NCBI GenBank assembly: GCA_012840395.1
Contig: DULL01000083.1
Span: forward strand, 9,316 to 73,315
Length of the DNA stretch: 64,000 bases
Reading direction: 5' to 3'
DNA from: Clostridiaceae bacterium
Lineage (GTDB): Bacteria; Bacillota; Clostridia; Acetivibrionales; DULL01
The notes under the pieces were generated by a model. That model had not been told where the DNA came from. It saw nothing but the letters and a program-made list of their open reading frames with translations, and ran no database searches. Shown one piece after another: positions 19,416 through 63,872 of the stretch (positions are counted from its first letter, which is position 1; every line of letters starts with the position of its first letter). The position numbers and the translations under genes were made by a program.

Positions 19416-19499
19416 GGTTTTTATAATAAAGCAGCAAGAAAACAGTAAGGGGTATGAAACAAGAATCTCCACTTTTATAAGATGGAAAGGTACAAATAT

Positions 19500-19533
19500 A
19501 AAGGGGCTGGCAACAAACTGACAGCTCCTTTTA
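19500..19533 (+). terminator. Putative rho-independent terminator of the permease gene
   Basis: AAAGGGGCTG (19500-19509) pairs with CAGCTCCTTT (19522-19531) with one G-U pair, followed by TT. Confidence 0.5.
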
Positions 19534-19628
19534 AGTTAATGCAAAAAGTGGCTGGATGTGGCAGCCGAATGGTTGTTAGGACACTCAGGATGAACAAAGG
19601 CGGAAGTTATATGTTTCCTTGTATCCGT

Positions 19629-19697
19629 GGAAGCAGAAGAACCGTCCCTGCGCTTCACCCTCCTGGAAGCAGAAGAACCGTCCCTGCGCTTCACCCT
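19629..19697. repeat. Tandem duplication (36-nt period) of a 33-nt GGGAC-family unit
   Basis: GGAAGCAGAAGAACCGTCCCTGCGCTTCACCCT occurs at 19629-19661 and again at 19665-19697. Its first 21-22 nt equal the arm of the 11441-11464 hairpin. Confidence 0.9.
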
Positions 19698-19791
19698 GCG
19701 CTTCCCTGACAGGATACCCTCCAGCCATAATTGACAAAGTATAACTTGGTTTGATAAGATTACTCTGTAGTTATAGTAAAATAAATGCAGC

Positions 19792-19817
19792 CGGGTTGGT
19801 CAAGCCAGCCCGTTTTT
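19792..19817 (+). promoter_or_regulatory. Terminator-like hairpin plus T-run in the purE leader (possible attenuator; sensor unknown)
   Basis: CGGGTTGG (19792-19799), loop TCAAG, CCAGCCCG (19805-19812), then TTTTT. It lies 30 nt upstream of the purE start. TTGACA occurs at about 19731. Confidence 0.35.
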
Positions 19818-19847
19818 AGATTATAGATGGAGGTAATATTCATTAAA

Positions 19848-20360
19848 ATGAAAAAGGAACCAAAGGTTTTATTAGTAATGGGAAGTGATTCGGATTTTCC
19901 CGTACTTGAAGGATGTATAAAATTATTGAAGCAATTTGGCGTTTTTGTTCAGGTGTTGGTTTGTTCGGCGCACCGTACTCCGGATAAAGCGGCAGAATAT
20001 GCCAAAACAGCAGAGGAGAACGGCTTTGACGTTATTATTGCTGCTGCTGGAAAGGCAGCTCATCTGCCAGGTGTTTTAGCGGCGTATACACCTCTGCCTG
20101 TGATAGGTGTACCTATTAAATCTTCCACAATGGACGGCCTTGACTCACTTCTTTCCATAGTGCAGATGCCAAGCGGAATTCCTGTTGCCACAGTTGCCAT
20201 AGACGGAGGGGATAATGCCGCACTTCTGGCTATCCAGATATTATCGGTGGGATACAGTGAACTTAGAGAAAAAATGAAAGAATATAAAATCCAGTTAGCC
20301 AGAAAGGTTGAAGAAAAAAACAAGGCTTTACAGGAAAAGCTGCTTGGAGGGATACTATGA
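19848..20360 (+). CDS. purE: N5-carboxyaminoimidazole ribonucleotide mutase
   Basis: VLLVMGSDSDFPV...AAGKAAHLPGVLAAYTPLPVIGVP. ATG 19848 follows GGAGG. Confidence 0.95.
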   Translation: MKKEPKVLLVMGSDSDFPVLEGCIKLLKQFGVFVQVLVCSAHRTPDKAAEYAKTAEENGFDVIIAAAGKAAHLPGVLAAYTPLPVIGVPIKSSTMDGLDSLLSIVQMPSGIPVATVAIDGGDNAALLAIQILSVGYSELREKMKEYKIQLARKVEEKNKALQEKLLGGIL

Positions 20361-21799
20361 TTTATGATCCTGTAAAAGATAAATTCAGAGATGAATGCGG
20401 AGTTTTCGGGATATACAGTAATGACAATTTAGATGTGGCACGTCTTGCATTTTATGCCATGTATGCTTTGCAGCACAGAGGCGAAGAAAGCTCAGGAATT
20501 GCTGTAAATGATTCAGGAACCATACTTAATCATAAAAATACAGGATTAATTTCCGAGATTTTTAATGATGTTATCCTGAACCATTTAAAGGGTCAATCTG
20601 CCATAGGCCATGTCAGGTCTTCCTACGAAGGCAGCAATACCATAGAAAATGCACAGCCCATGTTAATAAAGTATAGAAGCGGCCAGCTGGCTCTGGCTCA
20701 TAACGGAAGTCTTACTAATTCCTTAGAACTAAGAGAAAGTCTGGAAGAAAAGGGAGCCATGTTCCAGACATCAAGCGATACAGAAATTGTAGCTAATCTT
20801 ATATCCAGATACAGTGTATTCAACAGCAGTATTGAAGATATTTTAACTAAAGTTATGAAGGATATTAAAGGATCCTATGCCATGACTATTTTAACACCCG
20901 AGCATCTTATAGGCTTAAGGGATCCTTTGGGCATCAGGCCTTTATGCATAGGAGCTATTGGCAATTCATATGTAATTGCCTCTGAATCCAGCGGCCTTGA
21001 TGCTGTAGGAGCAAGCTTTTTAAGGGATGTAAAACCTGGAGAAATAGTGATAATTGACAAGAATGGACTAAGATCTGTCCAGGCTGTAGAAAGTAAAGAA
21101 TCCCGCCTTTGTATATTTGAATTTGTATATTTTGCAAGACCTGACAGTTATATAGACGGAGCAAGTGTCCATCATGCAAGGGTAGAAGCCGGAAGAATCC
21201 TTGCCAGGGAACATCCTGCCGATGCAGATCTTGTCATAGGAGCTCCTGACAGTGGTATCAATGCAGCATTGGGATTTTCAAGAGAATCAGGCATACCGTA
21301 CGGACAGGGACTCCTGAAAAACAAGTATGTTGGAAGAACTTTTATTCTTCCCGAGCAGGCACAAAGAGAAATAGGGGTAAGAATAAAGTTTAATGTTTTG
21401 CGGGACGAGATTGAGGGAAAACGTATAGTAATGGTAGATGATTCAATTGTCAGAGGCACAACAACCATGCGAATTGTACAGCTTTTAAAAAATGCAGGGG
21501 CTAAAGAAGTTCATATGAGAGTAAGCTCTCCTCCCTGCAAATTTCCCTGCTACTACGGTATAGATATTTCATCCAGTAAGCAATTGGTGGCCTCAAATTA
21601 TTCTGAAGAAGAAATCAGAAAGATGATAGGCGCAGACAGTATAGGGTACCTGAGCCTTGAAGGACTGCTTAAATCTCCAATAGGTTCAAAATGCGGATTC
21701 TGTACTGCCTGCTTCAATGGAGATTATCCTATTGATATATCCCAAAGTGCATGTAAAAATATATGTGGGAACAGTACCAAGAAACAGGAGGAGATTTGA
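20357..21799 (+). CDS. purF: Amidophosphoribosyltransferase
   Basis: N-terminal CGVFGI nucleophile, a PRTase motif ([12 protein letters not shown]) and C-terminal Cys residues. 4-nt overlap with purE. Confidence 0.95.
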
Positions 21800-44828: not shown

Positions 44829-45893
44829 ATGTATACGTATACGGATTTTTTAAACCTAATAAAATATGCCAGAGAAGCAAATGCTACAAATATACATCTT
44901 GTAGCAGGAGCTGTTCCGGCTATACGCGTTGAAGGAAGGCTTTTATATACTCCTTTTGAGACTGTACTTCCAAAGGATACCGAGATGTTTGCAAATGAGA
45001 TACTTAACGAAGAACAAAAAAGCATACTGAATAAAAACTTTTATATCAGTGTCCCAATTTCACCGAAAAATATCGGAAGACTAAGAGTAAATATATTCAA
45101 ACAAAGGAATTCCTATTCTATTAATATTAAATTACTGGATAAGGTTTTAAAAAATCCTGAAGAACTGGGCATACCTCAATCAGTAATAAACTTATGCAAT
45201 GAGAAAAGCGGGCTTATTCTTGTCTGTGGAAACACCGACAGCGGAAGATCAACAACTATGGCATCCTTGATTAAAAAGATTAGTTCAACCAGAGAATGCC
45301 ATATTATTACTATTGAAGATCCAATTGAGTACTTATTTAAACATGATAAGGCAATTGTAAATCAAAAAGAAGTAGGAATAGACGTGAATAGTTTTGAAGA
45401 AGGCATTTATTCAGCAATAACTCAGGATGCAGATGTAATAATGGTAAGCTCAGCTATAGATCCAGCCACATTTTCTGCAGTGCTTACTGCTGCAGAGGAC
45501 GGGCATCTTGTCATTACATCTCTTCATACAGATGATTCAATTTCAACCATAGAATATATAATCGGTATGTATCCTGCAGAAAAAAGCAATTATATAAAAA
45601 TACAGCTTAGCCATTTACTATTGGCAATAGTATCTCAATGTCTTATACCTGGTGTTGATAATGTGGGAAATAAGCTTGCTGTTGAAGTGATGATTGCAAA
45701 CCAGGCAATGCAAAACCTCATTCTGGAAAATAAAATTCACCAGATACCTACGTTAATAAGGGCAAGCAAATCCATTGGAATGATAACTATGGAGGATTCA
45801 ATAAATGAACTGTATACATCAGGCTTGATATCTAAGGAAAGCGCTTTGAGCTATCTGTCTAATAGAAAATATTCTTTAGGAAGATCAAACTGA
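44829..45893 (+). CDS. PilT-like type IV pilus retraction ATPase homolog with degenerate catalytic motifs
   Basis: Collinear with PilT (NIHLVAGAVPAIRVEG, RLRVNIFKQ, TIEDPIEY, GHLVITSLHT). Walker A reads GNTDSGRST (Arg AGA at 45246-45248 where Lys is expected). Walker B reads DVIMVSSAID (Ser-Ser at 45447-45452 where PilT has Gly-Glu). Confidence 0.8.
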   Translation: MYTYTDFLNLIKYAREANATNIHLVAGAVPAIRVEGRLLYTPFETVLPKDTEMFANEILNEEQKSILNKNFYISVPISPKNIGRLRVNIFKQRNSYSINIKLLDKVLKNPEELGIPQSVINLCNEKSGLILVCGNTDSGRSTTMASLIKKISSTRECHIITIEDPIEYLFKHDKAIVNQKEVGIDVNSFEEGIYSAITQDADVIMVSSAIDPATFSAVLTAAEDGHLVITSLHTDDSISTIEYIIGMYPAEKSNYIKIQLSHLLLAIVSQCLIPGVDNVGNKLAVEVMIANQAMQNLILENKIHQIPTLIRASKSIGMITMEDSINELYTSGLISKESALSYLSNRKYSLGRSN

Positions 45894-45931: not shown

Positions 45932-47635
45932 TTGTTTAAAAGGACAAGCAGCAGTATAAAAAATTTAATGGAATTATACAGATATATATCGATTTTCCTA
46001 ACATTGTTCATATATGTAGTTCATGGTATATTCCAGAACTACAATATATCTGTAATGCTTATTCTGGTTTTTTGTGTAATTATATATGCTTTCCTTTTTG
46101 GATATCTTTATAATATAAGCTTCGGTGACAAACAACGGATGGTTATTCTGCTTTTACTGGATATTGCAGGCATATCCTTCCTGATACTGCTGACAGGGGG
46201 GCTGGATAGTTCATTTATATGGTGTTTCCTTAATCCGTTGCTTGTTATATCCTATTATGCACCTCTGCGACCAAAGGTTTTATCCCTTGCAGCCAGCATA
46301 ATGTTACTATGCATTATCGGCTATATTGTTGAAGGAAAGCCGGGCATTAGGCTTTATTTATTATCCAGGTCCAATATTATTTTGAGTTTTACTTTGTTAT
46401 TGATTCTTGTTAATATACTTTTCTATTATAGCAGCCTTTTAGTAAAGAAGCAGAAGGAGCTAAGCCTTGCAAATGAAACTCTTGAAAGCTACAACAGGAG
46501 AATTAAGGGGATGACACAGGATATTTTGCATTTGTATGAGGCTGTTCAGACCATTTCAGGTTTATCGGTCCAGCAGGATGTGGCTTCTATTTTACTTGAG
46601 TTTGCAGGGAAGGTTTTCCCTGAAGCTAATGCTTTTTATTATCTTGATGACAATGGAAATACCGACAAACTTATGACCTTAAATCCGATAGATGATAATA
46701 TTTGGGATAATCTGGTGGATGATGTTAAGAGTTTGAGTGTATATAATAATACTGGTGCTGTTTCTGGTATCAGCAGGAAATTAGTAATAAATTTAGTTGA
46801 CCAAAATTTTGTTGCAGTAATAACAAGAATAACGGAAATAAAAAACTACGGAGTAATCGGCCTCCTGGTTCCTAGAGAAAAATACGGAGAGAATAAGGAT
46901 GAATATGAATCAAACCTGCTGCTCATATCACAACTGGCAACAACATTTTTTGAAAAAATAGAAGACGAAGCAGTGGGCTGTGAACTTGCTGTAGCTGACG
47001 AACAGAACAGAATAGCTGAAGATATTCATGACAGCGTAGTACAAAGGCTTTTTGCCGCTTCCTGCTTTATATATGACACACTGAAGAAATGGAATAATTT
47101 AACTGATGAACAGAAAAAGGAACAACTAAATCTTATAATGGAAACTATACGGAGTTCACTGGAGGACCTCCGTTCCACAATATATAATTTAAGCAGCAAA
47201 AAGCAGAATATCGTGCTTTTCAGGGAGAGTTTAGCTTCCTATCTTGACCAGATGGAACGGCTCAGCGGTATAAACATACACCTGGATGCCCGGGGAGACC
47301 TGGACAGCCTTTCTCTCAATGCAAGAAAGGCTATTTACAGGATAATAACTGAGTGTACGGGGAATGCCGTAAAACATGCAAAGTGCAAGAATATATGGGT
47401 TCATTTGCTGATGGATGAGAAAAATACAAAATTAACCATAAAGGATGATGGAATTGGTTTTGATTTGAGAAATAATGGAAATCGCAGTAATAACGGCCTT
47501 GGATTATACAACATAAAAAGCCTTGTAAGAATTTACAAGGGCAATTTGGAAGTTTTATCGGGAAAAGGCTCTGGCTCAACGTTTAACATAGAATTTAATA
47601 ATGACAATATTCTGAAGAAACCGGAGGCATTATAA
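45932..47635 (+). CDS. Sensor histidine kinase, NarL/DegS class (HisKA_3), with a polytopic N-terminal sensor
   Basis: About 5-6 N-terminal TM helices, a central sensor-like region, an H-box (EQNRIAEDIHDSVVQRLF) and an HATPase_c domain (NAVKHA...DDGIGF...NGLGLYNI...GSGSTF). The start is uncertain (TTG 45932 or ATG 45968). Confidence 0.85.
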   Translation: MFKRTSSSIKNLMELYRYISIFLTLFIYVVHGIFQNYNISVMLILVFCVIIYAFLFGYLYNISFGDKQRMVILLLLDIAGISFLILLTGGLDSSFIWCFLNPLLVISYYAPLRPKVLSLAASIMLLCIIGYIVEGKPGIRLYLLSRSNIILSFTLLLILVNILFYYSSLLVKKQKELSLANETLESYNRRIKGMTQDILHLYEAVQTISGLSVQQDVASILLEFAGKVFPEANAFYYLDDNGNTDKLMTLNPIDDNIWDNLVDDVKSLSVYNNTGAVSGISRKLVINLVDQNFVAVITRITEIKNYGVIGLLVPREKYGENKDEYESNLLLISQLATTFFEKIEDEAVGCELAVADEQNRIAEDIHDSVVQRLFAASCFIYDTLKKWNNLTDEQKKEQLNLIMETIRSSLEDLRSTIYNLSSKKQNIVLFRESLASYLDQMERLSGINIHLDARGDLDSLSLNARKAIYRIITECTGNAVKHAKCKNIWVHLLMDEKNTKLTIKDDGIGFDLRNNGNRSNNGLGLYNIKSLVRIYKGNLEVLSGKGSGSTFNIEFNNDNILKKPEAL

Positions 47636-47733
47636 CGAGGATGTAAGAAATTTTTCAACAATCGAAATTTTTCTTATGAATCTGGACGTTATAAGAAATA
47701 AGAAGTGTGTGGTCTGAAGGACAAAGGGTGCAA

Positions 47734-48909
47734 ATGATAATGGGCAAAAGAGAATATGAAGCGCTAATTATACTGGCTGTTATACTGTTATCGGCTATAC
47801 TTGGTATTAGGATTTTGCCGTCTTTTATAGGAACAACCGCATATCAGAATATCTTCAAGCCCTTATTCTGGTTTGCCCTTTCAGTTTATATATGGAAACA
47901 GCCTAGAGTAAGATTTAAAGGAAAGTTGAAACTCCATAAGTATATACTTATCTGGTCTGCAATATGTGGAATTGTATACATGGCTATTTTTTTTGCAGGA
48001 GGATTTATGGATGGAATAGGGGCAAGCCCATATTCAAGGAGCATAACCGGTATGCTTGTGAATGTTTTAAGTTTCGGAAGCGTAATAGTTATGATGGAAT
48101 GGGTAAGGAATTACATCATAAACAAAGTCAAGAAAAAATATCTAATTCAATTCAGTATTTTGGTGGTAATAATATTTACATTTTACAGGCTGAATCTGAG
48201 GATTTTAATGAGCGTGGAAAACTGGCAGCAGGTTATACGGTATGTAGGTGAATATGCGGGACCGGAAATAGCGTTAAATATTTTGATGGCATACATGGTA
48301 TATATTGGGGGAGAACGGCCGGCAATAATATATATGGCGCTTACAAACCTCCCCATTTGGATATCGCCTTTGCTTCCAAACCTCAGGTGGATTACCAAGG
48401 CTTTCATTGGAATTATGTCACCCGTAATATTTTTTATCATGCTGCGCCAGATTTATAAAAAGCAGGCAAAAGAGGTTAAAATAAGAGAGCAAAAAAGTGA
48501 AAAACCAACTTCCTGGATAGCTGTAAGTGTATTTTCAATTGCCCTTATATGGTTTGCTGTGGGAGTCTTTCCTATATACCCCGTAGTAATTCTTACAGGT
48601 AGCATGCAGCCTGCAATTGATCCAGGGGATATTGTTCTTTTGCAGAGGACCGATGGGCAAAACCTCAAAGTAGGAGAGATTATACAATACTGGACCGGTG
48701 AAATATTTATAGTTCACAGGATTATTTCAATAGACCAGGCCACCGGAAGGTACCAGACCAAAGGAGACAGTAACAGTGCACCAGACTCTGTGCTGGTTGG
48801 ACCCGAACAGATAAAAGGCAAGTTGATATCAGTAATACCTAAAGTTGGAAAACTAAGCATATGGCTTAGGAGAGACTATGAGTATCCGGAGGAACAAGTA
48901 GAGTTTTGA
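47734..48909 (+). CDS. Fusion protein: polytopic membrane domain of about 260 aa (unknown family) plus a SipW/ER-type signal peptidase I
   Basis: The C-terminal catalytic domain has LTGSMQPAIDPGDIV (Ser codon at 48601-48603), IVHRII (His) and KGDSNSAPD. The N-terminal region has about 6 TM helices not found in ordinary SipW. The track ORF starts at GTG 47707. Confidence 0.8.
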   Translation: MIMGKREYEALIILAVILLSAILGIRILPSFIGTTAYQNIFKPLFWFALSVYIWKQPRVRFKGKLKLHKYILIWSAICGIVYMAIFFAGGFMDGIGASPYSRSITGMLVNVLSFGSVIVMMEWVRNYIINKVKKKYLIQFSILVVIIFTFYRLNLRILMSVENWQQVIRYVGEYAGPEIALNILMAYMVYIGGERPAIIYMALTNLPIWISPLLPNLRWITKAFIGIMSPVIFFIMLRQIYKKQAKEVKIREQKSEKPTSWIAVSVFSIALIWFAVGVFPIYPVVILTGSMQPAIDPGDIVLLQRTDGQNLKVGEIIQYWTGEIFIVHRIISIDQATGRYQTKGDSNSAPDSVLVGPEQIKGKLISVIPKVGKLSIWLRRDYEYPEEQVEF

Positions 48910-48959: not shown

Positions 48960-50030
48960 ATGAATTTAAGCCTGACATTAAATAAAAAGAGAATAGTTAT
49001 TGCGGTTGAAATACTACTGGTACTTTTCTTCTGTATTAATACCTTATTGGAGATATTAGTTCCGAAATATACGGATGCAGAGAGAGTAAAGTTTGCATAT
49101 ACCAGCAAGGCCAATATAGACTACAGGGTATACCTGAGGCCGAATATCATATACCGTGAGAGTTTTCTGGAAAAGGGAAGATATTATATATTAAAATATA
49201 TCGATCATGTAAACTTGAATATGAAATACGATTTTATCTCATCGGATGAAGCTGACTTAACTGCAGTTTACAGTGTTACTGCATATCTTCAGGGACTTCA
49301 TGGAGAAGAAAATGAGGTGCTTTGGAGCAGGGAATATATTTTGATCCCAGAAAAAACTATACATAGGAATTCTTCCGATTTATCAATTGAACTGAGCGAA
49401 AATGTTTCCCTCAGTGAATTTCTGCAGGTCAGGGAATCTTTCTACCTTGAGTCGGAAGTAAATTCTCCTGCAGTACTTAATGTGGTTTTTTCAGTACATA
49501 CAAAAGCAGATTCCAAGGAAGGGACCCTGGAAGACAATTTAAAAACAAATTTAATTATACCGATAGGAAACAACGTGTTTAAAATAGAAGGTACCCCGGA
49601 AGCAAGGGGTGAAAACAGAATTCCAGAAACTATAAGAAACCGTATTCCTGTTAATTACTTGAAAGTTGCAATATTCCTTGTAATTTCACTGCTGCTGGTT
49701 GTACTGGTGATTCTTACCATACGTTACGTCAAAACCGCAGAGCCTCCGGATCCATTTAATAAGGCCATTGCAGATATATTCAAGGAATACTCTGAGAGAC
49801 TTGCAGGTATGACCCATAGTATATCCTACCATTTTTCTGATGTGATAACAGTTAATTCAATTGAAGATATGATTAAAATAGCAGATGAAATAGGACAGCC
49901 TGTCTTCTACTACAAGGTTGACAACAAGGTTGAAAGGAAAATAGAGTTTTTTGTATTTGACAGCGGCAGAGTCTATTATATGGCAATATTTGGTGAGATT
50001 AAACCGGAAAGTGAAGAAAGTTCCATATAA
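48960..50030 (+). CDS. Bitopic membrane protein (DUF5305-like; assignment tentative)
   Basis: 356 aa: TM1 (IVIAVEILLVLFFCINTLLEIL), an extracytoplasmic beta-rich domain of about 195 aa, TM2 (VAIFLVISLLLVVLVILTI) and a cytoplasmic tail of about 100 aa. Lies adjacent to the signal peptidase gene. Confidence 0.55.
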   Translation: MNLSLTLNKKRIVIAVEILLVLFFCINTLLEILVPKYTDAERVKFAYTSKANIDYRVYLRPNIIYRESFLEKGRYYILKYIDHVNLNMKYDFISSDEADLTAVYSVTAYLQGLHGEENEVLWSREYILIPEKTIHRNSSDLSIELSENVSLSEFLQVRESFYLESEVNSPAVLNVVFSVHTKADSKEGTLEDNLKTNLIIPIGNNVFKIEGTPEARGENRIPETIRNRIPVNYLKVAIFLVISLLLVVLVILTIRYVKTAEPPDPFNKAIADIFKEYSERLAGMTHSISYHFSDVITVNSIEDMIKIADEIGQPVFYYKVDNKVERKIEFFVFDSGRVYYMAIFGEIKPESEESSI

Positions 50031-50227
50031 ACTGTTTATCATAAATATACTACCTTGGTACCATATCATATGCCACTATGGTATTATTGTAATTATTCCT
50101 GGAGTTCTGAAGAATTATCAAATCGTGTGATTTACTTCAAATGATAAGCTTGTATAATTAAATTAAGAATTAATTAACGGTTAAGAATGTTAATGTCAAA
50201 ATGATGATATGAAAATAGAGGGGAGAA

Positions 50228-50800
50228 ATGAATATGAAGAGGACAAGATTTGTTTTGTGGGTTATTGTAGCAGCAATGGTTCTTATGGGCGCCGGATACG
50301 CAGCATGGTCACAGACATTTACGATAAACAGCACTGTACAGACTGGACACTTATATGTAAAAGTTCAAAAGGCTATTGAGGACCCAAGTATCGATATTGA
50401 TGAAGGTGTAAATTCTACAACAGTAAACTTTACTATTACTGATATGTATCCTGGAAAAAGTGTTCAACATGTGTTGAGATTCACCAATCAGGGAACAATG
50501 CCGGTAAGATTAAAATTTAATAGTGGTACTTATCCAGAAAATGATCCTCTTTGGAGAGATCTTGTAATTGAGGTTAACGAAGAAGAAGTTAAATCAGCAG
50601 GTGACACTGATATAGAGGATGTAGGAAACAAAATAGCAGAAATACTGACAAATCCGGTACTTGCTGTAGGTATTACAAGAGATATTACAATTACACAGAC
50701 ATTGGATATAAGCAGCACGGATGAAACTGAAAGTTCATCAATAAGTTGGAGCCTGGGTTTTGTATTTGAACAGTATAATGCTCCTGTCATTAATCCATAA
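50228..50800 (+). CDS. TasA/CalY (camelysin)-like secreted protein, paralog 1 (putative major fibre subunit)
   Basis: Signal peptide ends ..VLMGAGYAAWSQTF, followed by QTGHLYV, MYPGKSVQHVLRFTNQGTMPVRL and the C-terminal SWSLGFVFEQY. Strong RBS GAGGGGAG. Confidence 0.7.
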   Translation: MNMKRTRFVLWVIVAAMVLMGAGYAAWSQTFTINSTVQTGHLYVKVQKAIEDPSIDIDEGVNSTTVNFTITDMYPGKSVQHVLRFTNQGTMPVRLKFNSGTYPENDPLWRDLVIEVNEEEVKSAGDTDIEDVGNKIAEILTNPVLAVGITRDITITQTLDISSTDETESSSISWSLGFVFEQYNAPVINP

Positions 50801-50996: not shown

Positions 50997-51686
50997 ATGT
51001 TGGGTAGTTCTAAACGCCTTTTATCAATAACAGTTATAGCACTGGTACTAATTGGACTAAGCTATACTTTATCCTTTCAGGAGGGATTTGTTGAAGCAGC
51101 GCTTACCAATGCCACCCTGATTGAATTAGTACCTGATGAATGTAAAGTAATAAATACCAGCAAGAATTTGGAAGCCGGCGTGTCTTTTATAAAGGATGAA
51201 TTTGGTAACATTGTGGATAAAACATATATCATGCTTTCAACCAAAAACGTTTATGCAGGCGCCAGTGCTACCTTTTGCATAACTGCACGGAACATTAGCG
51301 ATATTCCCTTATCTGTTGATCAGTTTACTCTCCATGTTGATAGCAGGAAGGACTCCATATCTGATCTTATGTATTTTTCCGGAAAAGTAAAAATATACAG
51401 GAATGATGGAGTATATTACGATGAACTTGGCACCTTCAGCAACATCAACCTGGCTGCACTTGCAGACAACTTGACATCATTGACGAAATATAGGAAAATT
51501 GATTCCGGAGAAAAACTGGTACTTGAATTACAGCAAAAGTTTTCTGTGGATTCTGAAAAATTTGTTGGGAAAGTTGGCTTGTCATACAGACTGGAACCGG
51601 TTTTTGTCCAGTATTTTCCCAAAGAAGAAGAATTAGAAGAAGAATTATTGGTCGGGAACAATAGTAGGGATGAAAATGTTTCTTAA
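50997..51686 (+). CDS. TasA/CalY-like secreted protein, paralog 2
   Basis: Signal peptide ..LVLIGLSYTLSFQEGF, then NATLIEL, VYAGASATFCITARNISDIPLSV and LSYRLEPVFVQY, with an acidic C-terminal tail (EEELEEELL). Confidence 0.65.
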   Translation: MLGSSKRLLSITVIALVLIGLSYTLSFQEGFVEAALTNATLIELVPDECKVINTSKNLEAGVSFIKDEFGNIVDKTYIMLSTKNVYAGASATFCITARNISDIPLSVDQFTLHVDSRKDSISDLMYFSGKVKIYRNDGVYYDELGTFSNINLAALADNLTSLTKYRKIDSGEKLVLELQQKFSVDSEKFVGKVGLSYRLEPVFVQYFPKEEELEEELLVGNNSRDENVS

Positions 51687-52191
51687 GAGATACAAGAATA
51701 AGAAAAAGTGCAAATTTGGAAATCTTCTTCATGTAGGAACAATGTGCGTTGTCCTTATTGGAGCATTGAGCCTTCTTGGAATATCTTATTCTTCCTGGAG
51801 CCAGTCTTTTAGCATTTTTGGCTCCATATCCACAGGAGAAATTAACCTTGTTGTAAAAGATGTAGTATTGGATAGCTCCGATAGTTATGATTCTCTTAAC
51901 TTTAATGTCAACAAGACAGGAAATATTGTAGATTCAGTTAATATGGAAGTAGTGTCTGGTTCAAATCCTTTTAATACCGTACTGGTATTTACTGTTGAAA
52001 ATAGTGGAACAATACCTGTGGCATGTGAAGGTATTGACACAGATGCGCCCGGAAGTGTTGATGTACAGTTGCTTGAATCTCCTGAAAGGATATATCCGGG
52101 AGAGAGTGCTCAAATTAAAATTAAGATTGCAAAAGGTTATGTTAACAACTTTGAATTCAGTACTTTTCTTAGATTTGCACAGAAAATTTAG
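51670..52191 (+). CDS. TasA/CalY-like secreted protein, paralog 3
   Basis: Signal peptide ..LSLLGISYSSWSQSF, then STGEINLVV, VLVFTVENSGTIPV, IYPGESAQIKIKI and FSTFLRFAQ. Overlaps paralog 2 by 17 nt. Confidence 0.65.
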   Translation: MKMFLKRYKNKKKCKFGNLLHVGTMCVVLIGALSLLGISYSSWSQSFSIFGSISTGEINLVVKDVVLDSSDSYDSLNFNVNKTGNIVDSVNMEVVSGSNPFNTVLVFTVENSGTIPVACEGIDTDAPGSVDVQLLESPERIYPGESAQIKIKIAKGYVNNFEFSTFLRFAQKI

Positions 52192-52197
52192 GCAAAC

Positions 52198-52806
52198 TTG
52201 ATTCACTTTATTGAGGTGATTTATATAAAAAAACTGGTTTTAATAGTATTTATTATAATAATATCTATACTTTGTACAACAGTAAGCTTCGGATTATGGA
52301 GGTATAATTCCGAGGTCAGGTTTACAATAACCATTAAACAGCCTGAACAAGACTACGGTTGCTGTATTTGTGGTAAATATAGCACAATACGGGAAGGTAT
52401 AGATCTTTTAAGAGATGTACAATATCCGAAAATATATAACAAGATGGAGCAGTATAAAAATATGTTGTATGCACGGATAGACGAGCTTAATAATCTTCCC
52501 TTTGGAGGCATCACATATGAAGAGCTGGATGCAGAAGTAAATAAATATAGAAATGTTGATATAGAAGGATTTGGTAATTGTATTGAGACATATGGAAATT
52601 GTATAGTTACCCTGGGTGAATTTTATGAGAATTCAACACCAGAAGAAAAGAAGCAGGTCCCTAATTTCTGGACTGAGTCGTCTGGTCTTTGGATTTTGCA
52701 TTCTCAGCTTTGGACAAAACGCTCTGAGCTTTATATTGTAGTAAGTGAACTCTGGACCGCCGGACAAAGCAAAATAAACTGGGAGAATGAAGACGGCGAA
52801 GGGTAA
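52198..52806 (+). CDS. N-terminally anchored protein with a Cys cluster and C-terminal aromatic heptad repeats
   Basis: TM segment/signal LVLIVFIIIISILCTTVSFGLWRYNSE, a QDYGCCICGKY cluster, GFGNCIETYGNCIV, and five heptads (PNFWTES SGLWILH SQLWTKR SELYIVV SELWTAG). The start codon is uncertain (TTG 52198, or later after GAGGTG at 52213-52218). Confidence 0.55.
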   Translation: MIHFIEVIYIKKLVLIVFIIIISILCTTVSFGLWRYNSEVRFTITIKQPEQDYGCCICGKYSTIREGIDLLRDVQYPKIYNKMEQYKNMLYARIDELNNLPFGGITYEELDAEVNKYRNVDIEGFGNCIETYGNCIVTLGEFYENSTPEEKKQVPNFWTESSGLWILHSQLWTKRSELYIVVSELWTAGQSKINWENEDGEG

Positions 52807-52864: not shown

Positions 52865-53524
52865 TTATTCAGTCATATTCCCATTGCTATTTTTGCCTTT
52901 GTTTACATAAATTGCTGCCTGTAATCTGTTACTTAAATTAAGTTTTGCAAGAATGCTGCTAACATGTTTTTTTACAGTATTTTCGCTTATATAAAGTTTT
53001 TCTGCAATACTCTTGTTAGACATTCCTTTCCCAAGACAGTCTAGAATTTCAGCTTCTCTGGGAGTCAGCAATTCATCTTCACCTTCAGATTGTTGCACAG
53101 TCTGGCTCTGTACAGGAGTATTTATTCTTTCCAAAAAAACAGGGTCGAAATATTTTCTACCTCTAATAACAGACTTTACGGCATATACAATATCTTCAGT
53201 AAATGCATCTTTTAAAATATATCCGTCAATATTCAATTTCATAGCCCTGTCAAAATCCTCGGTAGATGAAGAAGATGAAAGTATAACATATTTGCAGTTA
53301 GGAAATTTTTCCTTTGCCATACGTATGAAATCGATTCCACTTTGATCTTTTAGCCTTATATCTACCAGAGCCAGATTATAGTCATTATTTGACATCAGTT
53401 CCAATGCTGACTTTACATCGTGAGCAAAATTAACATTATTTATATCTTGTTCAGAGATAAGTATATTCCTAATGCCGATGCAAACCAGGGGATGGTCGTC
53501 AACAATTAAAATATTCATATACAT
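52865..53524 (-). CDS. NarL/LuxR-family response regulator (REC domain plus LuxR HTH)
   Basis: MNILIVDDHPLV...LVDIRL (receiver domain) and LTPREAEILDCLGKGMSNKSIAEKLYISENTVKKHVSSILAKL. ATG 53524 lies 6 nt after AAGGAA. Confidence 0.9.
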   Translation of the reverse strand: MYMNILIVDDHPLVCIGIRNILISEQDINNVNFAHDVKSALELMSNNDYNLALVDIRLKDQSGIDFIRMAKEKFPNCKYVILSSSSSTEDFDRAMKLNIDGYILKDAFTEDIVYAVKSVIRGRKYFDPVFLERINTPVQSQTVQQSEGEDELLTPREAEILDCLGKGMSNKSIAEKLYISENTVKKHVSSILAKLNLSNRLQAAIYVNKGKNSNGNMTE

Positions 53525-53710
53525 CAGCTCTTCCTTAACTATACTGTATTTTAGTACAATAATATTTACCATAAAATATTTATGTATATTTATATAATAT
53601 TTTATATATTTTTTTGAATAAAATCTATGCTTTTTATAGTATAATTTTTGACAACTTATGAAAAAGAAAGTGAGCCAGAAGAAATACCTTTCTGGCTCAC
53701 TGCAGATTCG

Positions 53711-59086: not shown

Positions 59087-59178
59087 ATTTAAAAATATAC
59101 AATATTTATGTTGTTTTTTGTTAATTATTTAATCCCTGAGTGAAGTAAGTTTTATTAGCTTAGGCAGTGGAGTGGGCA

Positions 59179-59850
59179 ATGAGAATTAATTTATACAGTT
59201 CAAAAGGAAGTATGACCATTGAAGCTTCTATTATTATGCCTGTTATTATTTTATGTGTTATTGCATTATTGTTTATACCTGTCTATCTGTATAAACAGAC
59301 TTCTCTCCACAGCATGACAAATAAAGCTGCTGAAAGGGCATATGTTGTATGGAGAAATGTTAACGGAGATATGGAGACAGGCAAAGTCCTGAAAGAAGAA
59401 TTAAACAGTGACAGCCTTTATAGAAGAATGTATGATCCTTTCAAAGATATCCGGCTGGAAACTGTAAGAAGCTTTATAGAATCCAAACTGTCAAAAAAAG
59501 TTGTTTTTCCCGGGAATAAAGCCAATGAGGGTCCGGAAGCGGAAATTACTCTAAAAGATAATTTAATTTTAAAAAATTTGGATCTAACTGTCAAAGATAC
59601 TGTGGGAATTTTTACAGAAAATTATCTTGGGCTTTTTGATCCAGGAAAAAACTATTCTTTTAATTCATCCTCAACTGCTTTTATTTATGATCCTGCGGAA
59701 TTTATAAGAAATGTTGATTTTCTTGTAGAAATAAAGAAAGAGCTGGAAAAAGAATACCCGGAGCTTCAAGATACCAGCGGTAAATTAAAGGAAAGATTGA
59801 AGGACATCAGTAAATGGATTGAGAAAGCAGCTAATAAACAAGTTGATTAG
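59179..59850 (+). CDS. TadE-like pseudopilin-type protein
   Basis: The N-terminus SSKGSMTIEASIIMPVIILCVIALLFI fits the Flp/TadE prepilin pattern: G, then Glu at +5, then a hydrophobic helix. ATG 59179 follows GGAG. Confidence 0.7.
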   Translation: MRINLYSSKGSMTIEASIIMPVIILCVIALLFIPVYLYKQTSLHSMTNKAAERAYVVWRNVNGDMETGKVLKEELNSDSLYRRMYDPFKDIRLETVRSFIESKLSKKVVFPGNKANEGPEAEITLKDNLILKNLDLTVKDTVGIFTENYLGLFDPGKNYSFNSSSTAFIYDPAEFIRNVDFLVEIKKELEKEYPELQDTSGKLKERLKDISKWIEKAANKQVD

Positions 59851-59865
59851 AAAGGAAGATCGGCA

Positions 59866-62229
59866 TTGGGGGGCAATAAAGGTCAAGTATCGGTATTCTT
59901 ATGTATAATTTTTATGGCAGTATTTATTGTAGTAGGAGTTTTAGTGGATGCTTCAAGAATTATATCCGGCAAATCCCAGGTAGAGAGATCAGTTGCAAAT
60001 GCAGCCCGCTCTCTTCTGGCAGATTATAGTACAAGTATAAAAGAGTATTACGGAATTTTTGCCATAGATAATAACAGGGAGAAAGATTTAACCAATGTAG
60101 CAAGAGATTATCTTGAAAAAAACCTGGCTATTGGGATTGAAGAACTGCAAAATATTAATTTTTATAACTTCAAGGTAGAGAATATATCTGTAACACCCCT
60201 ATTCAGCCTGACAGGAGACCAGACGGTAAAAAATCAGATACTTGAATATATGAAATATAGTGCTCCTAAACAAGTGATAGAAAATTTGTGGCATAAGATC
60301 TTAATGGTAAAGGAAGCAGGCAAGGTTGCAGATACCTATAACAGGAAACTGAATGTGGAAAAGCTTTCCGCCCAGATAGGAGAGCTGCAGCAAAAACTTA
60401 AAGAAAAAATAAGCGGAACTATAGGAAACGGAATTTTTCAGGAATTCTTCATAAATAAATTTAATAAAGATGGAATTAGAAGTTCAGCCATTGAAAGCTA
60501 TGCAGAAATAACTATCAGGCAAAGTACCCTCTATAGGGAATTGAATGCAGCATATGAACTTATGAGACAGATAGAGGGTAAGCTTCATGAAAATGACAGC
60601 AATGAAGAAGCAGGGGGGCTAAAAGAAAAACTGGATATGCTCCTGGGCAGGATTAAAATGATGGAGGATGAGCTGGATATTCTGAAGAATGAAAGAGATT
60701 CCATGGAAAAAAGACTTAAGGGTGAGCTGACCGGTAGATATCTGGAAATTAATAAAGAAGCAAGGCAGATAATAGAAGATATCAGAGAGGTTAAAGAAAA
60801 GATAGAGGCTGCTATAGCGGATTTTGAGAATTATATGGATAACAGTCCTGCTGATGCCCATTCTCCATATCATAGTGTTCTGGAATCCATCAAAGAAGAT
60901 GTGGATTATATAAAAGATAATGTACTGAATGGTGAAACAACAGAAGAATTAATTAAGATTATTGAAAATAACATAACTTATCTTGAAAATGCCATGGAAA
61001 GACTTAACCGGGCATCCAGCCTGAACTGGCAGGAAATTGACCAGGATTCGGGAAAAGAGTGGATAATCAGTCTGCTTAAAGAAGGATTCGGAGATTATAT
61101 CAATATTATTGAATATGACTATAAGAAAGCGGGAGAGCCTGTCACAGCACCGGATCCCAGAGAAGGAATGAAAAAGGAAACAGAAGAAATTCTAAAAAAA
61201 GACAGAGAGGATGAAGACATAAAGAATGTTAGAATGGAAGAGGCAGGAATTAATATTAGTGAGCTTCCCTCAAAGAATAAATATTATGACGAGGATTTAC
61301 CGGCCTTTGAGGGCGGACTGGAAGATTTGCCCGGAGAAATAGACATTAACCAAAATGACAGCAGATTTGTCCATAATGTCTTCAATTACATGGGGAACAT
61401 AGGTAATATTTGCGGGGATTTTGAAGAATTCAGGGATGATCTTTACATTAATGAATATATAATGAAGGTATTTAATAACCAGGTTTCGGTGCAGGGAAAA
61501 AATAAAGCGGAAGGCAGTTCCTCTGTAAATAAAAATAGGGACTCTTTTTTCAATAGTGAAGTGGAATATATACTTCATGGAGATTCCTCAGAAAAAATCA
61601 ATAAAATGAAAACAAAAGCGCAAATACTGCTAATAAGATTTTCCATGAACACCCTGCACGCCTATTCCGACAGCAATAAGAGAGAGCTTGCAAAAGGTAT
61701 TGCCGCAGCAGTATCGGGATGGTGGACTGCAGGGGCTGGTATACCAATAATATCAAACATGGTTTTGTGCGGCTGGGGCTTAGGGGAGGCCATAATTGAT
61801 CTTGAAGATTTACTGGAAGGAAAAGCCGTTCCTTTCTATAAACTTAAAGGGGACTGGAAACTTGATCTGGGGCCCAATATCCGGCAAAACCCCAGTAGTA
61901 AAGGGAATAACCCAAGTCATGAAAGCGAAAGAGATATTTCAAGCCCTAAGAGTAACCCTGGACTGATGTTTGACTATAATGACTATCTGAGGATATTCCT
62001 GATGCTTGTGAATACAGAGAAAAAAATAGGCAGAATTGAAGATTTGATTGAATTAAACGGAAGGAAAGCCAATAGTGCTTTCAGAGCCACCAATTGCAGT
62101 ACCTGGATAAAAGTAGAAGCAGAGGTTTCACTGAATTATCTTTTTTTAACCTCTGCGTTTATGCCGGGAAGTAAAAAAACCGGGGAAGGTAGGCATATCT
62201 TCAGGGTGGTATGGTATGAAGGATATTAG
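59866..62229 (+). CDS. TadG-like (Tad N-terminal domain) protein, 787 aa, with a long coiled-coil region and a hydrophobic C-terminal segment
   Basis: The N-terminus GNKGQVSVFLCIIFMAVFIVVGVLVDASRIISGKSQVERSVANAARS fits the TadG-like N-terminal domain. Residues about 150-400 are heptad-rich and charged. The C-terminal part includes EVEYILHGD... and AAAVSGWWTAGAGIPIISNMVLCGWGLGEAII. Confidence 0.7.
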   Translation: MGGNKGQVSVFLCIIFMAVFIVVGVLVDASRIISGKSQVERSVANAARSLLADYSTSIKEYYGIFAIDNNREKDLTNVARDYLEKNLAIGIEELQNINFYNFKVENISVTPLFSLTGDQTVKNQILEYMKYSAPKQVIENLWHKILMVKEAGKVADTYNRKLNVEKLSAQIGELQQKLKEKISGTIGNGIFQEFFINKFNKDGIRSSAIESYAEITIRQSTLYRELNAAYELMRQIEGKLHENDSNEEAGGLKEKLDMLLGRIKMMEDELDILKNERDSMEKRLKGELTGRYLEINKEARQIIEDIREVKEKIEAAIADFENYMDNSPADAHSPYHSVLESIKEDVDYIKDNVLNGETTEELIKIIENNITYLENAMERLNRASSLNWQEIDQDSGKEWIISLLKEGFGDYINIIEYDYKKAGEPVTAPDPREGMKKETEEILKKDREDEDIKNVRMEEAGINISELPSKNKYYDEDLPAFEGGLEDLPGEIDINQNDSRFVHNVFNYMGNIGNICGDFEEFRDDLYINEYIMKVFNNQVSVQGKNKAEGSSSVNKNRDSFFNSEVEYILHGDSSEKINKMKTKAQILLIRFSMNTLHAYSDSNKRELAKGIAAAVSGWWTAGAGIPIISNMVLCGWGLGEAIIDLEDLLEGKAVPFYKLKGDWKLDLGPNIRQNPSSKGNNPSHESERDISSPKSNPGLMFDYNDYLRIFLMLVNTEKKIGRIEDLIELNGRKANSAFRATNCSTWIKVEAEVSLNYLFLTSAFMPGSKKTGEGRHIFRVVWYEGY

Positions 62230-63280
62230 GAACAGTATGGGAGATGCCAGGTTTTACATGAAGGATACCAGAGGGTCTGTAACTTTAGAGGCCGCCATTG
62301 CACTTCCGGTTTTTATATGTGTAATTATATCCGTCACATTTCTGATAAGAGTGGTACATATTAATGAATCCATAAATTATGCCTTAAACGGGGCAGCTAA
62401 TGAATTGGCAGCTTCCAGTTATCTATATCATGTAAGCAGAATTGAGGAACTTGAAAAATTACCTGAAGATGCCATTGAAAATATGGTAGATGGAATGGCG
62501 GAAGGAATCCTGGGAAGCACGGATGATCTTCCTGAAGAACTTAAAACCCTTGTAAAAAACATTATAAAAGGGAACTTCGAGGACCTGAAGACAGAAATCT
62601 GTATTCCCATTGTAAAATTATATTTCAAGAAGTATTTACCGGACTTCCCTTTGGGAAACCTGGATTTTTCCCATTCCAGTTTTTTTGAAGAAGATACCGG
62701 AGATATTGATATAATTGTAAGGTACAATGTTAATATCCCGCTTCCTGTGAAAATTCCCCAGATAATTTTTACTCAGAGGGCTTCTGTGAAAGCATGGCTT
62801 GGAGGCGATGAAAAGGAAAATAGCCCTGTGACAGGAGAAATCGATAATATTTGGTCTTTAAGCAATTTTGAAAGAGGAAGGAAAATAAGAGAGATTTTTG
62901 GAGCCAATCTTCCATATAATTTTCCAGTGCTATCAAAATTCGAAGGAGGAAAGGCCACAGTAATTAAAAGTATGGATTTAACTGCAGACACTTATAAAAC
63001 CCCTGAAATGGTGATTAAGAAAATAAGTGAATATATGGATAATCTTGCACAATACAAAGGGCAGGAAATACCCTGGGGAAGCAGCAAGATACTTATCATG
63101 GAAAAAGACATAATAATTAGAGAACTGTTGCTGGTAATCCCTTCAAATGAAATATCTCAGGAAATAAAGGAAGCTCTTGATTTTTGCGTAATACAAGGAG
63201 TAAATAAAGATGTTATATTAAGAATTGAAAAGTATGGTTATAGTTATAGGTATGATAAGCCTTCTAAAGAAAGTGTATAA
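62216..63280 (+). CDS. TadE-like protein with an uncharacterised C-terminal globular domain of about 150 aa
   Basis: The N-terminus TRGSVTLEAAIALPVFICVIISVTFLI shows the G/+5 Glu pattern. The C-terminal domain includes IWSLSNFERGRKIREIFGANLPYNFPVLSKFEGGKATVIKSMDL. Overlaps the upstream gene by 14 nt. Confidence 0.7.
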   Translation: MKDIRNSMGDARFYMKDTRGSVTLEAAIALPVFICVIISVTFLIRVVHINESINYALNGAANELAASSYLYHVSRIEELEKLPEDAIENMVDGMAEGILGSTDDLPEELKTLVKNIIKGNFEDLKTEICIPIVKLYFKKYLPDFPLGNLDFSHSSFFEEDTGDIDIIVRYNVNIPLPVKIPQIIFTQRASVKAWLGGDEKENSPVTGEIDNIWSLSNFERGRKIREIFGANLPYNFPVLSKFEGGKATVIKSMDLTADTYKTPEMVIKKISEYMDNLAQYKGQEIPWGSSKILIMEKDIIIRELLLVIPSNEISQEIKEALDFCVIQGVNKDVILRIEKYGYSYRYDKPSKESV

Positions 63281-63356
63281 GTGATATACTTTACTATAGA
63301 GCAATAAATAAAAAATTGCCATAAATATAATGAATGGGAACGGGAGAGGTGATATC

Positions 63357-63872
63357 ATGAGCCAAAAGAACCAATTTTCTATCCTGAAGCCTGAAGAAAT
63401 CACTGAGAATACTTTCAAACTTATTGGAAAAGACTGGATGTTAATTACAGCTGGGACTTATGATAAATTCAACATGATGACAGCCAGCTGGGGCGGACTG
63501 GGAGTATTATGGAGCAAAAATGTTTGTTTTTGCTTTATAAGACCTCAAAGATATACATATGATTTTGTTGAAAAGTCCGACACCTTTACGCTTTCCTTTT
63601 TTGGAAATGAATATCGTGAAGCACTGAATATATGTGGAACAAAATCCGGAAGAGAAATAGATAAAGTACAGGCTACCGGTCTTACACCTTTTGAGGATTT
63701 GCCCGGAATGATTTCCTTCAGGGAAGCGTCACTTATTGTGGAATGTAAGAAGATTTATTATCAGGACATAAAACCAGAAAACTTTTTGCAGCCGGATATA
63801 CAGGAATTTTACAAATTAAAGGATTATCACCGTATGTATATTGGTGAAATAATAAGATGCCTGAAGAGATAG
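63357..63872 (+). CDS. Flavin reductase-like (FMN-binding split-barrel) protein
   Basis: NMMTASWGGLGVLWSKNVCFCFIRPQRYTYDFV. ATG 63357 follows GGGAGAGGTG. Confidence 0.8.
   Translation: MSQKNQFSILKPEEITENTFKLIGKDWMLITAGTYDKFNMMTASWGGLGVLWSKNVCFCFIRPQRYTYDFVEKSDTFTLSFFGNEYREALNICGTKSGREIDKVQATGLTPFEDLPGMISFREASLIVECKKIYYQDIKPENFLQPDIQEFYKLKDYHRMYIGEIIRCLKR

Follow-up and report, generated by a model that had tools for sequence, protein, structure and literature searches.

What a PilT-like protein does in a locus without a type IV pilus (T4P), and whether it can still act as a motor there, is the question raised by the gene at 44829-45893 of the stretch of 64,000 nucleotides (nt) analyzed here (the window, to which all coordinates refer unless another locus is named), which belongs to contig DULL01000083.1 of a Clostridiaceae bacterium of the Acetivibrionales. 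The product of this gene is a PilT-fold protein that lacks the catalytic Glu of its family and is kept under strong purifying selection, and the gene heads a conserved nine-gene cassette predicted to encode a fibre of the TasA superfamily. The gene and its motifs are listed below, clade A being the group of close homologs to which it belongs.

44829..45893, plus strand: PilT-derived pseudo-ATPase of clade A, 354 amino acids (aa), identified by TIGR01420, by alignment to 2ewv and by an AlphaFold2 (AF2) model
45228..45254, plus strand: degenerate Walker A motif GNTDSGRST, residues 134-142, with Lys changed to Arg; the P-loop of the clade reads G-N-[KR]-N-S-G-x-[ST]-T
45309..45332, plus strand: Asp box TIEDPIEY, kept, residues 161-168, with E163 in 41/41 clade A members
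45432..45461, plus strand: degenerate Walker B motif DVIMVSSAID, residues 202-211, the Glu missing in 41/41 clade A members
45501..45530, plus strand: His box GHLVITSLHT, residues 225-234, with both His kept in the window protein

By both sequence and fold the product is a member of the PilT family. The TIGR01420 (PilT/PilU) model covers residues 8-345 of the 354 with 337.4 bits, above its cut-off of 319.1, and Aquifex PilT (2ewv) aligns at E 4e-81 with the motif regions free of gaps, which bears out the collinearity with PilT over the whole length that a sequence-only reading of this DNA had proposed. The AF2 model, computed from the clade A alignment, has a pLDDT of 89.9 and a pTM of 0.82, and Foldseek matches it to PilT4 of G. 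metallireducens and to PilU with TM scores of 0.87-0.89, recovering the two-domain fold of PilT. With the PilT/PilU retraction ATPases taken for comparison (Aquifex PilT 2ewv, G. metallireducens PilT4 6ojx and P. aeruginosa PilU 9n32) the protein shares this fold (TM 0.85-0.89) and full-length collinearity, and it keeps the Asp box and, in the N-domain, the arginines of RxR...QR; the AIRNLIRE region is retained in part. Unlike them, the clade of the window protein has no catalytic Glu, presents a degenerate P-loop and has lost five conserved Arg residues, and the gene lies in a predicted signal-peptidase-I-dependent fibre operon with no T4P genes nearby. The family-defining features that the window protein fails to display are, in short, the Walker A Lys, the catalytic Glu and the association with a T4P machine. 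It is deposited as HHW31906.1 under the label 'PilT/PilU family type 4a pilus ATPase', and public records name the proteins of the clade ordinary twitching-motility PilT or TadA. No second PilT/PilB-type ATPase was found across the window.

Clade A comprises 41 protein clusters (57-100% identity) recovered from a search of 5.8 billion proteins; a gap in identity parts it from canonical PilT (at most 45%), and on clustering at 50% its members all fall under one representative (P0030) of 1.84 billion. The four motif strings cited in the sequence-only reading are present in the window protein as given, and the HMMER alignment places S207 and S208 at the positions of the canonical Gly and Glu, and I210 at that of the Arg. 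Aligned with its orthologs, however, the two substitutions on which that reading had dwelt behave differently. The loss of the Walker B Glu is clade-wide: it is found in none of the 41 clusters, its position being taken by F (16), S (12), Y (8) or another residue (L, N or A; 5), and the Gly before it has become Ser in 39 of them. The Lys-to-Arg change in Walker A, on the other hand, is that of a minority, position 140 being occupied by K (26 clusters), R (3), I (8), T (3) or A (1), and the P-loop is one residue shorter in 3 members. In the His box the first His is retained in 33/41 and the second in 12/41. Invariant throughout the clade (41/41) are E163, E181, D200 and D202, as well as R84, R86 and R93 of the N-domain. 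Five Arg positions conserved at 90% or more in canonical PilT are lost throughout, which we take to be the equivalents of P. aeruginosa R97, R176, R194, R239 and R294, and a sixth, equivalent to R276, survives in only 6 of the 41 members. The residue directly before the P-loop, C133 (nt 45225-45227), is also invariant in clade A (41/41), in a position where canonical PilT has an invariant Thr. An invariant Cys pair was considered as a redox site and dropped, since C157 is common in canonical Clostridial PilT too and only C133 is specific to the clade.

These losses are accompanied by a redistribution of constraint along the protein. Expressed as a fraction of the mean entropy of the respective protein, column entropy in the P-loop, the Walker B motif and the His box is 0.20-0.33 in canonical PilT and 0.77-0.81 in clade A, and the C-terminal helices (residues 290-335) are tighter in clade A, with 0.80 against 1.02. 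Among pairs with unsaturated dS, the dN/dS ratio of the PilT-like gene is 0.08-0.14, and across eight cassettes its product averages 59.5% pairwise identity, as compared with 60.7% for the signal peptidase described below, 49.4% each for the kinase and the DUF5305 protein and 39-48% for the subunits. Because the open reading frames are intact, selection is purifying, the protein is among the best conserved of the cassette and synteny is kept, the gene is not decaying; the suggestion of a conserved pseudo-enzyme therefore stands, the Glu being missing in every ortholog and the degree of conservation equalling that of the peptidase. The further suggestion that this pseudo-enzyme is regulatory, acting as a nucleotide sensor or as a scaffold, stands only in part. 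Variability of the Walker A Lys, which is kept in only 26 of the 41 clusters, and deletions in the P-loop imply that nucleotide binding is not a conserved property of the clade, which weakens the sensor and favours the scaffold. Judging by their motifs, members with an intact GK[ST] may still bind nucleotide, but this would not be a conserved requirement.

The gene had also been described as an orphan, which is not the case: it is the first of nine genes in a cassette that recurs in other loci. The remaining features of the cassette in the window are the following.

45932..47635, plus strand: membrane histidine kinase, recognized by its HisKA_3 and HATPase_c domains and by its adjacency to the PilT-like gene in all clade A loci compared
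47707..48909, plus strand: polytopic SipW/archaeal-type signal peptidase I (TIGR02228, 70.1 bits against a cut-off of 51.85)
48960..50030, plus strand: DUF5305 accessory protein (PF17231, 86.7 bits; AF2 model)
50051..50083, no strand assigned: palindrome pair TACCTTGGTA (50051) and CACTATGGTA (50074, 23 nt on), between the DUF5305 gene and the first subunit gene
50228..50800, plus strand: AbpX/TasA-superfamily subunit s1, with signal peptide (profile against AbpX 9sj2, E 1.4e-6; against TasA, 0.013)
50997..51686, plus strand: s2, small secreted cassette protein, conserved across loci, with no family match
51670..52191, plus strand: AbpX-like subunit s3 (profile against AbpX 9sj2, E 4.9e-7; TasA weaker)
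52198..52806, plus strand: s4, small cassette protein with an N-terminal hydrophobic segment, conserved across loci, with no family match
52865..53572, minus strand: LuxR/GerE-type response regulator, presumably paired with the HisKA_3 kinase and found in all complete cassettes

The comparison of clade A cassettes draws on 11 loci looked up through the PilT-like protein and on five readable loci from a scan of metagenome contigs with the DUF5305 protein, which confirmed at least 14 loci (with some overlap: L099 is the contig of L088, and L096 and L097 hardly differ and share their tblastn statistics). The order of the genes, with which the window agrees, is PilT-like protein, HisKA_3 kinase, polytopic signal peptidase I of about 389 aa, DUF5305 protein, four small reading frames and LuxR/GerE regulator. 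A kinase or its remnant lies directly 3' of the PilT-like gene in all 11 looked-up loci; the peptidase is visible in nine of these and the full cassette in eight, L087 and L090 being cut by contig ends and L001 being a truncated copy. Among the matches listed in the DUF5305 scan, all five clade A loci that reach far enough upstream carry the full cassette, and 10 further pairs of PilT-like and DUF5305 clusters, not counting those of the window and the looked-up loci, agree in the size of their longest contig. The regulator is convergent with the other genes in most loci and upstream of them in L087. Genes flanking the cassette are different at each locus, and in the window its G+C content is that of its surroundings.

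In none of the loci examined is there a pilin, PilB, PilC or PilD gene in the cassette or within 10 kb of it, in agreement with the earlier remark that no pilin, PilB, PilC or prepilin peptidase gene is nearby. A cluster of TadE-like/DUF5702 genes is found 13 kb downstream in the window, from 59167 to 63872 and reaching the window end; one of its reading frames (62216-63280) joins a TadE-like N-terminus to a nuclease like that of the CDI toxin EC869 (PF21111, E 7e-10), an unusual pseudopilin fusion. Elsewhere, the Acetivibrionales metagenome-assembled genome GCA_050952225.1 holds both a complete cassette (L089, contig 3) and the truncated copy L001 (contig 1, 10001-11700), in which an intact PilT-like gene (P0019), with a dN/dS of 0.13 against its relative in L090, is followed by the first 210 or so codons of the kinase, frameshifted. 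Two further loci, L003 and L004, encode an identical PilT-like protein (P0039, 63 contigs) and cassette genes nearly equal in size and coordinates. Their upstream flanks are wholly unlike, with flagellar genes before one cassette and glycoside hydrolase genes before the other, and downstream they have a MazG gene in common before diverging, a pattern that could reflect mobility of the cassette, strain rearrangement or chimeric assembly.

The identity of the fibre follows from its subunits and from the architecture of the locus. The profile alignments of s1 and s3 to AbpX (9sj2) both begin at the mature N-terminus, W-[ST]-Q-[ST]-F...TG.L.V, so that mature s1 would start near AWSQTF. Bacterial abpX loci have been described as encoding a ten-transmembrane signal peptidase I, DUF5305 and, frequently, histidine kinases (bioRxiv 10.64898/2026.01.04.697558), and the match of s1 and s3 to 9sj2, together with the likeness of the locus to those of that study, leads us to predict that the cassette is an AbpX-type (TasA-superfamily) fibre locus, the homology of the subunits, the polytopic peptidase and DUF5305 all being in place and fibre formation by donor-strand complementation being the expected outcome. 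In the peptidase, the catalytic domain occupies residues 283-381 or thereabouts and a crude scan gives about seven or eight hydrophobic segments. Its listed GTG start (47707) yields 400 aa, but the orthologs measure 387-390 aa and are aligned from residue 12 onwards, so that translation probably begins with the ATG at 47740. The AF2 model of the DUF5305 protein shows a transmembrane (TM) helix, an extracellular beta-sandwich, a second TM helix and a cytoplasmic alpha/beta domain (residues 259-345), the arrangement already reported for DUF5305 in abpX loci (bioRxiv 10.64898/2026.01.04.697558). The cytoplasmic domain is the most conserved part of the protein, with a mean column identity of 0.79 as opposed to 0.65 for the external domain, and of the 26 DUF5305 columns invariant in both types of locus analyzed here, those of clade A and those of the clade B introduced below, 20 fall within it. 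DUF5305 relatives occur in Thermincola, Herbinix and Clostridium sp.

The earlier statement that the PilT-like gene is followed by a histidine kinase and then by the fibre locus is accurate, the kinase starting 38 nt past the stop codon. The kinase starts with a TTG at 45932, behind an AAGGAG site, and no terminator-like site was found in the window between the two genes, the gap between which ranges from -4 to 150 nt in the clade A loci. Its first 170 residues, approximately, contain about five or six hydrophobic segments and no large external loop. We considered the 4-nt overlaps of L085 and L088 as a sign of translational coupling and dropped the idea, given that the kinase starts there look over-extended when compared with homologs. 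At the other end of the cassette, the palindrome pair follows the approximate pattern TACYWWRGTA and recurs as a pair at the equivalent position in the eight cassettes compared (8/8), with the count of the pattern over the whole window at chance level. The pair is a likely candidate for the operator of the LuxR-type regulator. A promoter scan of the window returned sites in numbers that do not exceed chance. After the regulator of L092 lies, at 18775-20406, a gene for a PAS-GGDEF-HD protein, related to cyclic di-GMP (c-di-GMP).

Whether the kinase or the peptidase/DUF5305 pair is the constant companion of the PilT-like gene can be judged from a second lineage. Clade B, defined by a search with the PilT-like protein of loci from the DUF5305 scan, comprises 25 clusters at about 33% identity. 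In the scan loci that led to it the PilT-like proteins are 33-35% identical to that of the window, and the peptidase and DUF5305 proteins about 38% and 30% identical to theirs. Five of its loci were compared, three from the DUF5305 scan with enough upstream sequence and two from deeper members of the clade. All five have the order PilT-like protein, peptidase, DUF5305, with no kinase between the first two genes and with spacings that vary between 8 nt of overlap and a gap of 116 nt. In the two deeper loci the spacing is a 4-nt gap in one and an 8-nt overlap in the other, and the module is followed in one by a large hybrid kinase and in the other by a PilZ-bearing glycosyltransferase similar to cellulose synthase (L108, 15103-17232), again related to c-di-GMP. 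The absence of an intervening kinase in clade B indicates that the constant partner of the PilT-like protein is the peptidase/DUF5305 module and not the kinase. Degeneracy takes another form here: the Walker A Lys has become V, T or R in 24 of the 25 clusters, the Walker B Glu is kept in seven, the Gly preceding it is Ser in 24, and both histidines of the His box are lost in all 25. In a neighbour-joining tree each of the two clades is monophyletic in 200/200 bootstraps.

Degenerate PilT proteins are also found outside these clades. A scan of genome contigs with the clade A alignment, the patterns of which also caught canonical PilT, returned no clade A member among the matches listed, all of them at 42% identity or less. 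High-scoring representatives of about 720 aa (P0239-P0247) were considered as relatives of the clade and rejected, because they join two PilT modules in tandem and their C-terminal halves are canonical. P0245, with a canonical C-terminal module, has a degenerate N-terminal one (SGNRGSGRS, LIDEVYGR and no His-box His). In a similar vein, P0295, P0370, P0348, P0366 and P0251 are single-domain or tandem PilT proteins with damage in Walker A, Walker B or the His box, and by score they are unrelated to clade A. Degeneracy alone is hence not unique to the proteins described here.

To account for these observations we tentatively favour, at slightly less than an even chance, a reading in which the PilT-like protein would be a non-catalytic, PilT-derived cytoplasmic adaptor of the module that exports and processes the fibre subunits, wired in clade A to the kinase as well. 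Motor function would have been lost and the protein, probably still a ring, would dock from the cytoplasmic side onto the membrane module of peptidase and DUF5305, where the subunits would be processed and released. The cytoplasmic domain of DUF5305, as the most conserved part of that protein, offers a possible docking surface. In clade A the adaptor would adjoin the membrane-embedded kinase, and the state of the export/processing module could be passed through the kinase to the LuxR-type regulator, which would in turn use the conserved palindrome pair to drive the promoter of the subunit genes. Precedents for part of this exist within the PilT family. A PilT of V. cholerae inactivated in its Walker box still serves as an adaptor for PilU, and PilB of M. 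xanthus regulates exopolysaccharide production (PMC11656802). These are likewise cases of PilT-family adaptors or of matrix-linked signalling without ATP hydrolysis, but they concern engineered mutants or moonlighting active motors within T4P machines, whereas in the present proteins the loss is natural, fixed across entire clades and located outside T4P loci. Characterized PilT paralogs, such as the five of M. xanthus, retain all four motifs (PMC13584747).

Several observations weigh against the adaptor. Docking on the peptidase/DUF5305 module is suggested by gene order alone, and the DUF5305 model, compared with PDB structures by Foldseek, had no informative match. Archaeal DUF5305 proteins keep the cytoplasmic domain in loci for which no ATPase has been reported, and hence the domain cannot serve solely to bind a PilT-like protein. 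As to the link with the kinase, the 4-nt overlaps of the two genes in L085 and L088 may be miscalled start codons. The GK[ST] motif is kept in 26/41 clade A clusters, and E163 and the N-domain Arg residues in all, so that binding or slow hydrolysis of ATP is possible in those members. Finally, clades A and B are grouped together in 0/200 bootstraps of the neighbour-joining tree, leaving a single ancient recruitment unsupported; the shared Gly-to-Ser change would still allow a single origin, as would the fact that all three proteins have diverged in parallel (33, 38 and 30% identity).

Among the alternatives to the adaptor, the one that fares best makes the PilT-like protein a specific regulatory partner of the kinase, a sensor of nucleotide (ATP/ADP or a second messenger) that modulates the adjacent enzyme. 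It would explain why the kinase stands directly 3' in all clade A loci (11/11 looked up, 5/5 from the DUF5305 scan) at gaps of -4 to 150 nt, uninterrupted by a terminator in the window, and why most members retain GK[ST] together with the Asp box and the Arg residues of the N-domain; c-di-GMP enzymes or receptors next to some cassettes (the PAS-GGDEF-HD protein of L092, the PilZ glycosyltransferase of L108) also speak for it. Nevertheless, we consider it unlikely. Clade B has the degenerate PilT with no kinase before the peptidase, and the Walker A Lys is I, T or A, or the loop is shortened, in roughly one clade A cluster out of three, while most of clade B has lost this Lys. Nor do evolutionary distances single out the kinase: pairwise distances of the PilT-like protein correlate with those of the kinase (r 0.79), which speaks for the sensor, but about as well with those of DUF5305 (0.75) and the peptidase (0.74), such that these mirror-tree correlations point to no single partner among the three.

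The protein might instead act in trans as a brake that, made together with matrix fibres, poisons or occupies a T4P or other motor of the PilT/PilB type and so contributes to a switch from motile to sessile life, much as EpsE stops the flagellum in Bacillus subtilis. A PilT fold and N-terminal domain that are kept while the catalytic residues appear to be lost, in a gene co-located with matrix genes, would suit such a role, as would the intact PilT-like gene that the truncated cassette L001 retains under constraint (dN/dS 0.13 against L090). Experimental work in C. perfringens provides arguments of both signs, for T4P components there affect secretion of the TasA-like Bsa proteins, but deletion of pilT has no effect on it (PMC11580942). 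Canonical T4P genes are absent from all the loci examined, and a role in trans leaves the strict adjacency to peptidase and DUF5305 in two deep clades without explanation; we therefore regard the brake as quite improbable.

Slightly less probable still is an ATPase that remains active through unconventional chemistry and powers subunit export or fibre assembly. The invariant acidic residues near the site (E163, E181, D200 and D202), the invariant R84, R86 and R93 and the GK[ST] of the clade A majority are what such an enzyme might use. However, the catalytic Glu that defines the family (PMC11656802) is replaced by F, S or Y in 36/41 clade A clusters and by L, N or A in the rest, clade B has lost both His-box histidines and, for the most part, the Walker A Lys, and the motif regions evolve at a rate close to the average of the protein. 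Decay of a functionless PilT pseudogene, to which the damaged catalytic motifs might point, is refuted by intact reading frames across 41 and 25 clusters, a dN/dS of 0.08-0.14, conservation among the highest of the cassette and preserved synteny.

Returning to the adaptor, the relationship of these loci to known fibre systems sets out what is new in them. With the bacterial AbpX-like loci of bioRxiv 10.64898/2026.01.04.697558 they share AbpX-like subunits, polytopic peptidase, DUF5305 and a histidine kinase with its regulator; the PilT-derived gene is an additional component, constant in the loci sampled here, and neither PilT nor ATPase occurs as a word in that paper or its supplement. In C. 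perfringens, secretion of the sipW-bsaA-bsaB-bsaC products depends in part on T4P components (PMC11580942). That system resembles the present one in its TasA-like donor-strand fibres in Clostridia, its SipW-type processing and its functional link to the T4P family, but its T4P genes are active, lie elsewhere in the genome and include a pilT that can be deleted without effect on Bsa secretion, whereas here a degenerate PilT lies inside the fibre operon. A signal peptidase of their own, DUF5305 (TafG) and small subunits of the donor-strand type are likewise found in the archaeal Tafi, ABP and thread loci, and no protein of an ATPase family has been reported in their clusters (PMC11821415, PMC9715654); the thread paper mentions an ATPase for type IV filaments only, and the words PilT and ATPase are absent from the Tafi paper. 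In the literature searched on TasA-superfamily fibres (TasA, ABP, AbpX, threads and Tafi) we found no report of a cytoplasmic component of an ATPase family, and no mention of a conserved degenerate PilT built into their operons, which we thus present as new.

Seen more broadly, it is possible, if doubtful, that TasA/AbpX fibres of Clostridia, which are thought to form outside the cell without motor or chaperone, are made by a machine with a non-catalytic ring, derived from a retraction motor, on its cytoplasmic face, gating or reporting the processing of subunits by peptidase and DUF5305. Two filament systems considered unrelated would be combined in such a machine, and two or more deep lineages would have it fixed. 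For the annotation of these anaerobes, the database labels PilT and TadA wrongly imply motility by type IV pili. Should the adaptor reading be true, the family would include a natural, selected PilT that works without its catalytic Glu, complementing the engineered Vibrio cases, and the cytoplasmic PilT-derived partner of peptidase and DUF5305 would mean that the export or assembly of these fibres is controlled from inside the cell.

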